A stretch of 64,000 nt of DNA from IMG/VR virus record IMGVR_UViG_3300029286_000011, one strand, 5' to 3'. The DNA comes from a virus. Taxonomy: Duplodnaviria > Caudoviricetes. Positions 39,001 to 45,000 of this stretch are shown piece after piece. Position 1 is the first letter of the stretch; each line of letters opens with the position of its first letter. Made by a program: the position numbers.

Positions 39001-42000
39001 CGCCAGAATGATGCCCTTTGTTGTCATTGCCACTGTTTTGCTCCCTACGTTGAAGTACTAAGCCCTAATCTACGTCCGTCGTACTGCTGTCTGGCAGCTT
39101 TCACCCAGTCCTTATTGTCCGCATACCACTCCAGGGTTGTTATGAGGCCGATGCCGTGCGGTATGCTGTTGTTCCATCCTAGCTCGTACATTGCAGCACT
39201 GTTCATCGAGTATTCAAAGTCGTGACCGGGTCTGTCCTCCACAAAGGTAAGCAGATTCTTGTGCGGAGTTCCGAACCAGTCGCGCCTATCTAGCAGCTTG
39301 CATATGTCATTAAGCAAGCTGTAATTTGTCCTGTTGTACTGTGCGCCGATGTTGTAGTGTGTGCCTGGAACACCTTTCTCCAGCAATAGCTGTAATGCTG
39401 TGCAGTGGTCATAGACATGCAGCCATTCGCGTCGTTGTAGGCCGGAGCCGTACACAGGTATTTTCTTGTTCTCCAGGCCATTACAAATCGCCATCGGTAT
39501 CAGCTTCTCCGGAAACTGATACGGGCCATAAGTATTGGCTCCGTGCGTAACGATTGTCGGCAGCCCGTACGTCTTGAAAAAGGCATCTGCCAGATGATCA
39601 CCAGCAGCCTTAGAGGCCGAGTATGGCGATCCCGTGTGGTAGATGTCTCGTGACTCCGCTGGTGGCAAGGTATACCTGCTACCAAAGACCTCGTCTGTAG
39701 ATACCTGAACAAACCTGAACTCAGGCAGTTCCTTACTGTATCGTTGCCAGTACCGTTTGACCTCCGTCAGCAGAGCTGCCAGATCAACAACGTTTGTTTC
39801 GATAAACGGCGACATGTCATCAATCGATCTGTCGACATGCGTCTCTGCTGCAAAGTTGATGACAGCCGTTGGCCTATAGGTGTCAAAGATCGTTTCTACT
39901 AACGTCTGCTTACCGATAGTGCCCTTTACAACGTGCAGTCTAGCGTCTGCACTAAGCCGTTGCACCGTGATCGGATTACAGGCATAGGTCATTGCGTCTA
40001 ACACAACGACTCTGTGCGAGTCGTCGTGACGACTCAACCAGTACTGGATGAAGTTCGAGCCTATGAAGCCCAAGCCTCCAGTCACGAATAGCGTTTTGGC
40101 TTTACTAGGTTCGGACATGTAATTAGCGCTAATTACGTTTTGTATTGGACGTGGTTATCTGACGGCAACAGATCGGCCAGTTCTTCTGCGCACTGGTCAA
40201 GCCACAGATCCTCAGGCGTTTCGGGTTCGATTGACAATCGACCCTGTTCGAAGTGGTCATCGTCGTTACGCTGTATAGCCATCGCTACAGCTTCCTCGAC
40301 CTCATCAGCCGAGAACATATAGAACAGCCAGTCGATTTGCTCTTCTATTGTCATAGCGCTTAGGCTGTCAACAAACTGCTGACAAAGTTCATCAGCTGCC
40401 AGATCGATGTCATCCTGGCAGACGCCAAGTCTGATCATCTCGGCGATCATCGTGTTTCGGATGTTTGTGTTTTCATCATCCGTAACGTCAGGAGACTGCT
40501 CCTCGTCCTCGATGACATCTTCGTCCTCGACAACGACATCTCCGGACACTGCAGACGGCATAGTCAGACGCGAGGCCAAATCTTGTGCGTATTTGGCCAA
40601 CCAGCCGTTTGTGAAGACAGTTGGTGCCTCGGCTGTTTCTGAGGCCTCGGTCATCACCAGCTGCTCAACACGACCAGCTGGAAGCCAATCACGCATAAGA
40701 GCGTACAAGAACATAACCAACGGACGTTTGTCTTTGACGGAACCCGACCGAGAACGCAGCGCAGACAGCTCGACTTGTACCTGCTTAGAATCCATATCAA
40801 TTCCTTCTGTGCAATAGTTGATAGAAAAACCAAGGGCCGCAGCTCATTGATAGAACTGCGGCCCTTGGATACACGCCGTAACAGCTACTAGTGCGCAGAA
40901 GACGCCAATGCCGGTTCGGTATCGTCGTCCGTGTCTTCATCATCATTGTCGTTCTCGACGGGGCCTTCGCCCAAGCTGTCGTCCAACAACGTCATAAGCA
41001 GGTCGGGACTCAGCGGAATGTCACGCAAGTAGCGCGTGAGCTGATGTACCATCATGCTGGCAGTGATGTTGGCCGCGTAGATGGTGCTACGCGCCGTGCA
41101 ACGACCCTGCTCAGCCTCTTCAGCCGCGAACAGCGTTGACTCATAGCGCGTGCGATCCATCGGCGTGCTGGTCAGCACGCGCAACGTTTCGCCGAGCATA
41201 CGGCCATCGATCATGGTGACATTGAACTGCTTGCAGCTCTCGTGCAGAAGTTCACGAATCTCAATGCTGTCCACACACGTAAACATGACGTGGATGGGCT
41301 TCTTGTTCGTACGAGCATTGAGAAGCAATACGTCACTGAAGCGGCCATCAACAGTGGCCACAGACAGCGAAGGATCCAAAGCTATCATATCGGAGGCCGT
41401 GGCTACAACCTTCTTCTGCTGCAGCTGATCGTACCGATAGCCCTGCGTTGTCACATTGGTTTCCTCGACAATGTCGAAGTCCACCAACATGACGTTAGAA
41501 GCGCCGATAGCCGCCAGCTGCAATGCAACTGAGCGACCGACAGCGCCAACGCCAACTATCATGATGTTCGTCTCAAGCAGCTTGTCATGCGGCACGAGCC
41601 CGGCTTGACGCTCAAAACGATCTTTTGCCTTTGTCGTCATCAGAAATCCCTCATTCCTTAGGGGTTGTACAAGTTAGTCAATGGCCAGCGTTGCGGCACG
41701 GTCAAGTGCTTCGTTCATCTGCACATCTTCAACAACGGCAATGTCGTCAGGCTTTGGTGCCTCTACGTCTGCCGGTGCAACCTTGTCGTCAAACTGCTTG
41801 GTGTTCCAAATACCGTACATGGCCAACCAAGCTTCGGAAGTTCTAGACGGCACTTGCATGCCGTGTATGCGTGCCCACTCCTCGATGGCGCTGAGTTCGT
41901 AAGCACTGAGCCCAAGGCTCCACGCTCCGCGATTACCCGGCCACAGTGCCGGCTTTGTCTCATTACCGGTCACACGTGCGGAAGGCTGGTTTCGCCAGTC

Positions 42001-45000
42001 ACTGACGAGACCTGATGAGCCGGACGTAGGCTGACCGGTAACGAAATTCATAGCCGGTGTGGTCGAGGGAATTGCACTAACAGCGGCATGAGCCGATACG
42101 GGAGTAGGCGGGATAATTGCGTGGCCCGTATAGCCGGACACCATTGGTTCGGCAGCCCGTGAACGTGCAGCCTCTGCCCAGGCGTCATGTCCATGAGCCG
42201 TCTGCGAGCTGTAGGACGACTGATAGCCATAGTTGCCTTGGTTAACGCTATGATCGTGATAGTGCCGTGTGTAGTACGAAGACATACCGTCAGTGCTGTA
42301 ATTCGTTGGATACTGCACTACCGACGCGCACTTCGTAACACAGCGAGTGTACTCTGCCTGCCACGCGGCAACATCCTGGCTGCCACCAGTGGCCGACCAG
42401 TCAACCGACACAGGCAGCTCCGTAGAGAAGCCAGGGCCGACGTTGAAGCGCAATCGCGCATACGTTTCATGGCCACGACCGACAACCATCATGACGCCCC
42501 AGTGACACGGCCCGAGACATTCAAGGAACGTAGTCTCATCCGTGCCACTCGGAGTCACGCCACTGCCTGGATGCGTATGGATCCAGATACGGCCACAACG
42601 CTCAGGGCCAATGCCCTCAGCCCCGCAGTCGAGAAGATAGTCGGCCACGGCGTCATCATCAAACTTGGTCGAAGCCATGCTGACTCGCTGCTTGACCAGT
42701 CGTACCTCGCGGATCAACAACAACTGTGTAGCATCCGAAATACCCCACATGCCGACTTCGTCAGATGACGAGTGAAGCATGTGTAGCAACTTGGCCCAAG
42801 CGCTAGGTGCAAAACGCAAACCGGCCAACTTCGGCCAGTCATTACTAGTGCCCATAGGCATATAGGTGCTTGATGCAGCTGCGATAGACGGGCCTGCAAA
42901 ACCCGTCACAGTTCGAGGCTGAACAAGCGGCCCGTTGTTGGTTTGCCGGATGTTTGTGACCTTATTGATGATGCCGTCCTCTTTGGTTTTGTTGTTTCGC
43001 ACTCTGACTGTCGCATCGCTAAACCGCGTCTTCTTCCTTGACATAGCCATCCTCTGCAGGAGATTGAGTAATACCTTGAACATCATACGCTCGCGGTTGA
43101 AGCTACTGCTGTCGGCAAGCAGTCAGGGCAGAAATAGAATCCCTCGTGCAATACCAGGTCAGATCTTAATCGTGATGCTTCGCAAGCAGCACAGATCATC
43201 ATGCCACGCGGCGCTGCGGGCTGAGTGGTACCACGCATCCGATCAGTAACAGGCGCTGTGGCGATAGTTGGTGCAACGGGCACCGCAGGTGTCGGATAAC
43301 CAATTGGCCGTAGTACCGGTGTCGGTGATGCCGGTGGAAGGATTTGCCACGTAACCTCGGACGCAGGGGCTGGCGTGGCTGGGACAGGTATTACGCTGGC
43401 AACCTGAGCAATCTGTGCTTCACGAGCTGCTCTTCGTGCAGCAGCCTCTGCTTGCAACACCCTGTAGCAAGACGGGCACTTGCATCCACTACGCGTGACG
43501 ATGACATCAGCACGAGCCACAGCACAGCCACACTTAGAGCAAGTGTGTATACAGCCTTGGCAATATCGATGCCCATCAACTTCTCGCAAGCCAGCTGCGG
43601 CATGAGTGGCGCAGAATACTTTGTTGCAGTTTTCACCTTCACAGCGAACAGCACAGCCGCCACAAAGATGGGTGCTGCACGTTACGCAACGACTATGCTC
43701 AGCCGGTACACGTCCACGGCAACCGGAACAACGCTCACCAAGCCACTGATCCAAGTTGCGATATGCCTGACCACGGGCGTAGGTGTGCAACACAGTGTCG
43801 GCTATTTCGACGATATCACCAAAGCGCAGCTCAGACGCGGCGCCGTTGAATGCCGTCAGGCCTTCGCCAAAACACAGACGATTGTGATTAACGTGCGGGT
43901 GTATGAGTCCATGCGACTCCACAGGCCAACGATCCTCGTCAGAAGTGTAGATGGACACATGTCCTCCAGGTGTAACTACAATCCACAGTTCGCCCATGAC
44001 GTACTTCTCGCTAGCCACGGTAAACGAGATTTCGTCTGTTCGAACTGCTATGCCTTTCATAGGCACGTTCCAAAATACGCGATTAGGCCTAGCTGAACGT
44101 AAGGCCAGCAGATCGTGAACTATGTCGACGCACGTAGCCTGAAACGTGCTACTGGTTTGTTGTTTGATAAATGGATTGCCACCACGCCACGTGGACACAT
44201 GGCTGATGACATTCGGCAACTTGTCAAGCAGCGCCTTCATGACGACAGGCACATCGCCGCTTGGATTACGTCGGCCAAATCGGCCAAGAATGCTTCGTGC
44301 CTCGGCGCCCAGCCGAGTGAGCTTTAGCAACGCTATTACGTCGTTAGTCTGCAATTTGAACTGACGACAACCGGCAGCCACCGCGCGCGTTGCAAATCGT
44401 ACGATCAATGATTCGGTAAGCGGCACATAATCCGTGGGCCGCACATAGTCACTCATCAGTTGACTCCTTTTTATTGCACAAACACAAACACCCTGGGTGG
44501 CAAAATTACCACCCAGGGTGTTTTTAGGTTAGATCAACAGGTCCGCAAAATGCGGACTGGTCTTACGACCCTGGCTTAGCAGGCGCCTTCGACCTTCGTC
44601 GGGGTAATGCTGATACGGTCGCCGTTCTGCAACACGAAGCCGGCTTCGATCGGGTTTTCGGGGCCACCGAAGGTGACCTCGGCGCGACGGATCCGCTTCA
44701 TGTAGTTGGCGGGGATCTGTCGGTCGCCGATCTGGGTGGCGAAGAAGGTGGCGATGGTCGTGCCTTCGGGGATGGAAATCCAGTTGGCATAGCCTTCGCC
44801 GCCGTTGTTGACGAACAGGACGCGGATGGCCGGGGTGGAAGCGCTGTTGATGTCGTTGGACATGAGTCAAAACCTCTCATAGTAAGCAGTAATGTTTCCT
44901 CATCCACAGCAACCTTGCTGCAGACAGCTACAAACGTGTCGCGGGGGTGCTTGTCGAGCACCTCCTCTCATGGCAAGTACACTCACGATGCATCGTACTG

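Follow-up and report, generated by a model that had tools for sequence, protein, structure and literature searches.

A stretch of 64,000 nucleotides from the virus record IMGVR_UViG_3300029286_000011 (Duplodnaviria; Caudoviricetes), hereafter called the window, carries four co-oriented, tightly packed open reading frames (ORFs) on the minus strand at 40888-44863, which encode in this order a ubiquitin-like protein (Ubl), an E2-like protein with a zinc array (E2/Zn), a JAB/JAMM metallopeptidase and an E1. We conclude, with a probability of roughly 0.78, that the four genes make up a self-contained and working Ubl conjugation cassette, and that this cassette represents a distinct family residing in phages and integrated mobile elements of Planctomycetota. 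Our basis consists of the folds, the conserved catalytic residues, a modelled complex of E1 with Ubl and a gene order to which more than 90 loci strictly adhere, all seen here; the chemistry and the cleavage site we infer.

In the predicted pathway, the Ubl would be made in a capped form (Gly93 plus Ala-Cys) and trimmed by the Rpn11-like JAB protein, exposing Gly93. The small homodimeric E1 would then bind the Ubl, adenylate its C-terminus and form a thioester on Cys181 in its crossover loop, similar to UBA5, before the Ubl is handed over to Cys195 of E2, which resides downstream of the HPH motif. The zinc array and the N-terminal helices of E2 would take the place of an E3 and choose the target lysines, and the JAB protein would also take the tag off again.

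To our knowledge, full Ubl conjugation in bacteria has been shown only for CBASS Cap2, Bil and Bub, all of which are read as host defence. A phage-encoded full Ubl cascade was not reported in the searchable literature. A survey of 224 jumbo phages makes no mention of Ubl, JAB, ThiF or E1-like proteins (PMC7824862), and for Asgard viruses, only E1-like genes have been reported. If our reading holds, the picture is reversed and a virus or mobile element itself owns the conjugation machinery. The compact parts, i.e., an E1 of 250 aa, an E2 that includes its own zinc module and a Ubl that is always capped, may then bear on the origin of the E1-E2-E3 logic and of Rpn11-type processing.

The four proteins and their predicted chemistry

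The original prediction, made from the sequence alone, had proposed four co-oriented genes closed by a terminator at 40825-40868. All four ORFs were confirmed on the minus strand, namely those for the Ubl precursor (44576..44863, 95 aa), E2/Zn (43083..44456, 457 aa), JAB (41674..43086, 470 aa) and E1 (40888..41640, 250 aa). The ATG of the JAB gene overlaps the stop codon of the E2 gene as ATGA; the public gene call starts JAB 14 codons later (456 aa). The terminator is equally real. It is a strong, intrinsic one, extends from 40868 to 40830 on the minus strand, begins 20 nt past the E1 stop codon and comprises a stem of 16 bp with 11 G-C pairs, a loop of 7 nt and the T-rich tail TTTTTCTATC. 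A further hairpin is situated between the Ubl and E2 genes (44486..44523, minus strand; 17-bp stem, 4-nt loop, weak T tail). This hairpin, which is followed by AAAAGGAG and then by the ATG of the E2 gene, may act as a partial terminator and thereby lead to surplus Ubl transcript. The motifs originally quoted for the four proteins, i.e., the Ubl end, HPHV..C and CxxC in E2, HTH..PS..D in JAB and GxGxxG plus a cysteine in E1, are all present.

The Ubl precursor is a single beta-grasp domain with the end TPTKVEGAC. It did not match any Pfam, PHROGs, PADLOC or NCBIfam model nor any PDB sequence, and its sequence similarity to ubiquitin is undetectable. The ESM-Atlas model for exactly this protein resembles clusters of ThiS/MoaD (Planctomycetota), Ub-RnfH, SLBB and ubiquitin-domain proteins with template modelling (TM) scores of 0.61-0.70. 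The matches to ThiS/MoaD, RnfH and ubiquitin, together with the docking into E1 described below, bear out the earlier claim that the 95-aa ORF has a beta-grasp fold. Genes in the same position in loci L001, L002, L005, L006 and L007 encode proteins that are 35-44% identical to the Ubl of the window.

The C-terminus of the Ubl deserves attention. In an alignment of 43 sequences, G93 and A94 are invariant, and the conserved end TPTK(V/I)EG stops at Gly93 (codon 44585-44587), after which Ala-Cys follows. As a correction, the conserved end of the modifier is the glycine of EG and not EGA, so that the Ubl of the window has two extra residues and not one. When the tails of 103 homologs were surveyed, the conserved glycine was terminal in none. 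Gly-Ala occurs in 92 of them, 20 of which stop there while 72 run on, with 1-5 more residues in 49, 6-20 in 18 and more than 20 in five cases. The remaining homologs have GG, GE, GP or GN, and then either stop or continue with a tail. A mature Ubl ending at Ala94 was set aside, because position 94 varies (A, G, E, P, N) and Gly93 is constant. As the glycine is never terminal in the 103 homologs, the most parsimonious interpretation is that all Ubls of the family are made capped and that trimming by JAB exposes Gly93, which would make the peptidase an obligatory activator. The Ubl gene also stands out by its codon usage, with a G+C content at third codon positions (GC3) of 0.854 compared to 0.48-0.68 for all other genes measured, among them those of its three partners. 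Strong expression bias or recent transfer from a high-GC host is indicated by this difference.

The JAB protein contains a catalytic domain (residues ~86-260) flanked by long N- and C-terminal extensions. Its zinc site of the type E...HxHx7Sx2D is complete and is formed by Glu110, His170-Thr-His172, Ser180 and Asp183, with the HTHx7SxxD motif HTHPGSGVTPSGTD covering residues 170-183 (window 42538-42579, minus strand). The glutamate, both histidines, the serine and the aspartate are invariant in 44 sequences and align with their counterparts in the Rpn11-like protein from Caldiarchaeum. The JAMM motif thus proved intact in a protein that had been predicted to be a JAB protease. More than 120 homologs were found with E values down to 1e-58, many of them named RPN8/RPN11 and one stemming from a Pirellulaceae metagenome-assembled genome (MAG). 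Among solved structures, the Rpn11-like protein of Caldiarchaeum (6fjv, E 1e-3) matches the family profile best, and eukaryotic Rpn11 comes next. As a single sequence, JAB did not match PDB sequences, PADLOC or NCBIfam models, and its match to Pfam Prok-JAB is sub-threshold only.

For E1, the original assignment is borne out by a Pfam ThiF match (1.3e-27) and by the catalytic cysteine. The protein is a single adenylation domain of the ThiF/MoeB/UBA5 type that contains Arg8 and Arg11, the GVGAVGR P-loop (GxGxxG at residues 30-35), Asp124 and GRCTARS with Cys181. R8, R11, G30, G32, G35, D54, N62, Q66, K77, D124, R129, D145, R147 and C181 are invariant in 43 orthologs. Cys181 (codon 41098-41100) belongs to a GxCT motif that follows the DGRM strand, and its position as well as model contacts at residues 175-184 suggest that it is the crossover-loop cysteine as in minimal E1s.

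The best PDB matches of E1 are MoeB, UBA5 and ThiF, with BubCD and Uba1 further down. This, and the ThiS/MoaD clusters among the nearest model matches of the Ubl, would also be expected if the two proteins were a ThiF/ThiS- or MoeB/MoaD-like pair in cofactor or thionucleoside synthesis with unrelated genes as neighbours. We regard such a sulfur-carrier function as very improbable. E1 stays far below the cut-offs of all ThiF and MoeB equivalogs in NCBIfam (72.7 bits against 275 for ThiF; 58-65 bits for the best MoeB models against 266 and 376), which argues against it. Its best-matching stretches end by residue 208 of 250 and no rhodanese family was matched. No thiamin or molybdenum cofactor genes were noted nearby. 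Furthermore, more than 90 loci have E1 locked to JAB and to an E2 with an invariant cysteine, and a free Gly-Gly end is found in none of the 103 Ubl homologs.

A modelled complex of the E1 dimer with Ubl residues 1-94 and ATP is in line with a role of the pair in conjugation. The best of three controls stayed at 0.11, whereas the complex reached a score of 0.83; this latter value is attained by 58 of 80 solved complexes and by two of 110 mismatched pairs. Contact agreement between runs was at least 69% and the pLDDT (predicted local distance difference test) value of the partner at least 78. In the model, Ubl residues 87-94 lie on the P-loop of E1 (30, 32-35), the Asp124 region (121-126, 129) and residues 146-152. 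Note that complexes of the MoeB-MoaD type have already been solved and that the model thus shows likeness and is not a proof of binding.

In E2/Zn, an N-terminal helical hairpin (residues ~15-100) is followed by a domain with the ubiquitin-conjugating (UBC) fold (residues ~105-240, window 43737-44144), the Cys/His zinc array (residues 243-330, window 43467-43730), a Pro/Ala-rich linker and a terminal CxxC..CxxC (residues 422-446), all encoded on the minus strand. The active-site motif HPHVNHNRLC occupies residues 186-195 (codons 43872-43901), comprising HPH186-188 and the catalytic Cys195; the third residue of this HPN-type motif is His and not Asn. A word-indexed protein search with E2 returned the protein itself only, and scans of IMG/VR with E2 or E1 as single proteins found nothing. 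An exhaustive HMMER search with residues 1-250 yielded 473 relatives at E<=1e-3. The HP(H/Y)..C motif was present in 147 of 148 inspected relatives, nearly always as HPH(V/I)x5-6C, and most of these proteins have a tail with 20-60 cysteines. An alignment of 58 sequences showed H186, P187, C195, L223, Y226 and W238 to be invariant, and at least 90% of the sequences have H188.

Neither did the 58 family members match curated E2 models (Pfam UQ_con, Prok-E2_A to E) at E<=0.01, nor did a profile search of PDB sequences find an E2 enzyme. AlphaFold2 modelling with the family alignment gave a pLDDT of 82.8 for residues 1-345 and of 89.0 for residues 100-252 alone, the latter with a predicted TM score (pTM) of 0.83. 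The domain was folded on its own because searches with the model of residues 1-345 were dominated by the helical hairpin and non-significant in Foldseek. When the domain model was compared with 48,161 PDB representatives by VIA, ranks 1-18 were all E2 enzymes, headed by UBE2S (1zdn, Z 7.2, 121 residues aligned, root mean square deviation 4.4), and nearly all other rows listed were UBC-fold proteins (more E2s, UEV, RWD, FANCL, BubB). Foldseek on PDB and Swiss-Prot returned the same superfamily, though non-significantly. Given this homogeneous VIA list and an invariant HPH..C placed where E2s have HPN..C, we consider the assignment of the modelled domain to the UBC fold as settled, and the protein described as E2-like in the original prediction can be addressed as such.

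The zinc array contains at least 17 cysteines and five histidines and is mostly modelled with pLDDT above 90, falling past residue ~305. Matches to the RING-like domain of TFIIH p44, the TRIM21 RING and FYVE (profile, E 0.002-0.05) and to PHD and LIM domains were weak. Because cross-braced fingers are matched no better than this, a RING-like E3 role of the array is inferred. E2 is the fastest-evolving part of the cassette, with 24-30% identity as opposed to 35-50% for the other three proteins, and in some phages it has been multiplied. Three tandem E2/Zn paralogs occur in L011 (3520-7026), and L036 has an extra E2 after E1 (9060-10415). Fast evolution and multiplication fit a target-selecting role. 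Many E2/Zn C-termini (P0124-P0270) share a tail of the form C(L/V)G(Q/E)AxV(P/S)A, which reads CLPTAVASTASV in the window (43083-43130), and in L002 and L005 the region encoding this tail overlaps the called start of JAB. The conserved tail may serve for docking or simply result from the overlap of the two genes.

Recurrence and carriers of the cassette

The window is part of a metagenomic contig of 209,573 bp (ENA ERZ27250635), and the same sequence is present in several lake-water metagenome runs. Based on its length and a gene resembling that for the RNA polymerase beta subunit of jumbo phages, the contig is phage-like. With the JAB alignment, 39 viral contigs of 10-208 kb were collected from IMG/VR and scanned for the four genes with our own profiles. 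All four genes were found in the same order in 33 of them, and contig ends truncate two of the remaining six. In GTDB, searched with one genome per species, 519 stretches were retrieved, and the locus figures given here refer to the 80 best. The four-gene cassette was detected in 57 of these 80, most of the others being truncated contigs. The best 80 of 519 originate almost exclusively from Planctomycetota (Pirellulales, Planctomycetales, Phycisphaerae, Brocadiaceae), and a single genome often has several copies. This agrees with the original prediction, which had placed operons of this kind in planctomycetes. None of 50,697 GenBank phage records matched the cassette DNA, JAB or E2 in blastn/tblastn searches.

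Altogether, more than 90 independent loci share the four genes and their order, so that the arrangement goes far beyond chance. Order and strand are also the same in the phage-like contigs L001 and L006, and in L003 E2 is fused to JAB, which ties these two proteins together. An apparent lack of E2 in the bacterial contigs L002 and L005 turned out to be a gene-calling artefact, as the gene is present but uncalled, and frameshift errors probably account for an apparently split E2 in L007. The cassette of L007 (1-2841) lies downstream of Tn7-like TnsB/TniB/TniQ genes and is probably transposon cargo. Some viral contigs (L019, L021, L041, L044) have a second E1 a few kb upstream, and two of them (L019, L021) also a second JAB.

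Recurrent neighbours in the bacterial loci from GTDB are genes for a tyrosine integrase, ArdC-N, DUF2958, Ku and a GHKL ATPase. With such neighbours, the bacterial cassettes look like cargo of integrated mobile elements. A tree of E1, calculated by a quick method and rooted at the midpoint, placed long and deep branches on viral contigs and requires at least three switches between viruses and bacteria on well-supported branches. The E1 of the window pairs with that of L001 inside a clade of 46 rows dominated by Planctomycetia copies. Nearly identical E1s (branch lengths 0.003-0.06) are present in L073, L078, L072 and L055, and the MAGs concerned bear the labels Schlesneria, Candidatus Kuenenia and Planctomyces. 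Such similarity suggests that an element or phage has been spreading recently or that contigs were mis-binned. In Stieleria tagensis, two contigs of 1.9 kb end inside the cassette in a repeat-like manner.

The occurrence in integrated elements, where defence systems are common, and in the Tn7-like element of L007 would suit a defence function akin to that of Bil, in which the element tags a structural protein of competing phages and thereby provides superinfection exclusion or protection of the lysogen. Such a function would differ from other uses of the cassette in purpose only and employ the same chemistry. The four-gene content and order equal those of BilA-D (PMC11601603), and the E2 evolves fast and is multiplied. 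On the other hand, no defence model in PADLOC or NCBIfam matched Ubl, E2 or JAB (the presence of Bil models in either library was not checked), the architecture of E1 is unlike that of BilD, and the deepest and most diverse branches reside on viral contigs, which reach 208 kb and comprise the window phage with its RNA polymerase-like gene. All in all, we consider this kind of defence possible, albeit on the unlikely side.

Possible roles and genomic surroundings

Mobile and phage carriers, a fast-evolving and sometimes multiplied E2, an always-capped Ubl and the extreme codon bias of its gene are features that fit a conflict role. We thus lean, with some caution, towards the cassette as a weapon in conflicts of mobile elements with hosts or rival elements, in either direction. 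The proteins tagged may be handled by a second gene block. In L002, L003, L005 and L035, this block lies directly upstream of the Ubl-E2-JAB-E1 genes. In its full form, it encodes a DUF1257 protein, a DUF2997 protein, a classical AAA ATPase, a protein X and the small proteins Y and Z; some loci have only part of it. Block genes directly precede the cassette in 13 of the 37 GTDB loci with a full upstream flank of 10 kb.

A related block is present in the window 15.9 kb away from the cassette (20982..24965, minus strand). It consists of genes for a DUF1257-like protein (24591-24965), a DUF2997 protein (24409-24594), a classical-clade AAA ATPase with Walker A, Walker B and PGRVD motifs (22823-24412), protein X (21667-22944), an extra 131-aa ORF (21287-21682) and the small protein Y (20982-21287). 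The ATPase is 38% identical to its homologs in the loci over ~505 residues (E 1e-91 to 1e-94), X matches its homologs in L002, L003, L005 and L035 with E 1e-24 to 1e-26, and Y and the DUF2997 protein were also matched. According to Pfam and NCBIfam, the ATPase resembles CDC48, PAN and FtsH modules. Protein X is putatively DUF3150-like. A gene for a 59-aa CsrA homolog (Pfam 2.2e-22; 20792-20971, minus strand) directly follows the block, and a csrA gene also resides near the cassette in the bacterial locus L005 (10137-10364).

The link between cassette and AAA block is frequent, not obligatory, and may be loose, and a functional tie is suggested by gene neighbourhood. The CDC48/PAN-like ATPase may act on tagged proteins in about a third of the elements and probably in the window phage. 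The linkage makes the origin of tag-then-unfold coupling directly testable. In the most elaborate version, E1 and E2 with its RING-like array would tag host or rival-element proteins, AAA and its DUF1257-, DUF2997- and DUF3150-like partners would extract or unfold them, and JAB would recycle the tag, the whole pathway resembling that of a proteasome lid. If true, ubiquitin-plus-unfoldase logic would exist in a bacterial virus, which would share it with planctomycete mobile elements; we rate this version of the pathway as quite unlikely.

The AAA block also bears on the question whether the phage tags host proteins, e.g., immune or housekeeping ones, for inactivation or for an AAA unfoldase, or else uses JAB and Ubl to neutralise a Ubl defence of the host. 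Its presence in the window phage agrees with such a take-over, as do the occurrence of the full gene set in large, virulent-looking phages and the codon bias and separate hairpin of the Ubl gene, which suggest high expression. However, JAB alone would suffice to reverse a host tag, yet E1 and E2 are always kept. The near-identical bacterial cassettes would, moreover, all have to be prophage or mobile-element copies, which is plausible. As a purpose of the cassette, counter-defence or host take-over appears unlikely to us.

Several points weigh against the central conclusion that the cassette is a working conjugation system. E2 did not match anything in Pfam, PHROGs, NCBIfam, PADLOC or PDB sequences, and although its fold matches agree with one another, their values are middling, with Z not exceeding 7.2 and Foldseek E above 0.05. 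The RING likeness of the zinc array rests on weak matches that are explicable by cysteine composition. The E1-Ubl model, in which Ala94 was included, may only reproduce MoeB-MoaD-like complexes that have already been solved. Two thirds of the cassettes have no AAA block beside them, and more distant relatives of its ATPase occur in cultured phages, a collection in which no homolog of JAB or E2 was found. Finally, none of the sequencing runs that contain the stretch is an RNA run.

As for the other genes, those within the window are on one strand and accompanied by three tRNAs. The RNA polymerase-like gene is an ORF of 2197 aa (4049-10642, minus strand) that matches jumbo-phage RNA polymerase beta families. 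Its residues ~794-1156 match PHROGs of thymidylate synthase and ribonucleotide reductase and may represent an intein or another insertion. A protein with a GIY-YIG domain (Pfam 1.2e-12) is encoded just upstream of the Ubl gene (45187-45666, minus strand) and a 351-aa protein of PHROG 5931, which has no assigned function, further upstream (47081-48136, minus strand). The cassette is flanked by genes for RmlA-like (38146-39033) and RmlB-like (39045-40118) proteins, and an RmlD-like dTDP-4-dehydrorhamnose reductase is encoded at 19622-20554 (minus strand; Pfam RmlD_sub_bind 1.8e-36). A protein of 165 aa (28188-28685, minus strand) is homologous (E 1e-13) to the product of the gene directly upstream of the Ubl gene in the phage-like contig L006. 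This hints at a relationship of the two phages beyond the cassette.

Comparison with known systems

Some of the known Ubl systems can be dismissed as the identity of the cassette by gene content. In type II CBASS (Cap2/Cap3), a fusion of E2 and E1 acts on a CD-NTase. In the cassette, by contrast, E2 and E1 are separate genes with JAB between them, and there is no CD-NTase gene, which rules CBASS out. The 25 best of the 32 PADLOC matches of E1 are all CBASS E1-E2 models and arise via the adenylation domain. PRTRC is ruled out as well, since E1 scores 18 bits with PRTRC_ThiF against a cut-off of 144.75 and the other three proteins have no PRTRC match. With UBA5, MoeB and ThiF, its best sequence matches, the E1 shares the single adenylation domain, and it was modelled as a dimer. 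The catalytic Cys250 of UBA5 is situated in the crossover loop (PMC11601596), as predicted for Cys181. It differs in being linked to E2 and JAB and in having no paired CxxC zinc site (three cysteines in total).

The Bub system (6E/DUF6527) resembles the cassette in combining Ubl, E2, JAB and E1, in its homodimeric single-domain E1 and in a JAB cut after a conserved glycine (PMC11601596). BubB is also among the fold matches of the cassette E2 (Z 4.9). However, Bub employs a tyrosine oxyester on E1, a serine oxyester on E2 and the serine protease DUF6527, whereas both catalytic cysteines are present and invariant in the cassette (C181 of E1, C195 of E2). The cassette is thus not Bub. A DUF6527 gene was not found among the scanned neighbours.

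The Bil system (bacterial ISG15-like, types I and II) consists of the four genes for BilA (Ubl), BilB (E2), BilC (JAB) and BilD (E1) (PMC11601603). Besides components and order (Ubl-E2-JAB-E1), it has in common with the cassette the pre-processing by JAB of a Ubl with a C-terminal overhang, the lack of a separate E3 gene and an E2 that is thought to pick the targets (PMC11601603, PMC10557695, PMC11601596). The Bil E1 has the architecture IAD-AAD-CYS (PMC11601596), while that of the cassette is a single domain of 250 aa with its cysteine probably in the crossover loop, and this rules out that the cassette is Bil. The E2 of the cassette is extended by helices at its N-terminus and carries a large zinc array, overhangs are present in all Ubls of the cassette family but in only some of those of Bil (12 of the aligned set), and the hosts of the cassette are Planctomycetota and their phages.

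The eukaryote-like operon of Caldiarchaeum subterraneum (Ub, E1, E2, a small RING E3 and an Rpn11-like protein) provides the best solved match to the JAB profile. A thioester-type E1 and E2 and the help of a zinc finger for E2 are shared. Going by the title of Fuchs et al. 2018 (cited in PMC10557695), Rpn11 processes the ubiquitin precursor in the Caldiarchaeum system. In the cassette, the zinc module, which has a putative RING fold at most, is fused to E2, mobile elements are the carriers, the E1 is a minimal one, and sequence similarity of the Ubl to ubiquitin was not detected.

In spirit, the cassette is therefore nearest to Bil with respect to content and order, and to the Caldiarchaeum operon with respect to the Rpn11-like peptidase and the zinc-finger help. 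The planctomycete operons had probably been noticed earlier in the bioinformatic work of Burroughs, Iyer and Aravind (2011). We view the cassette as a prokaryotic Ubl conjugation operon with a new carrier, i.e., the phages and mobile elements of Planctomycetota.

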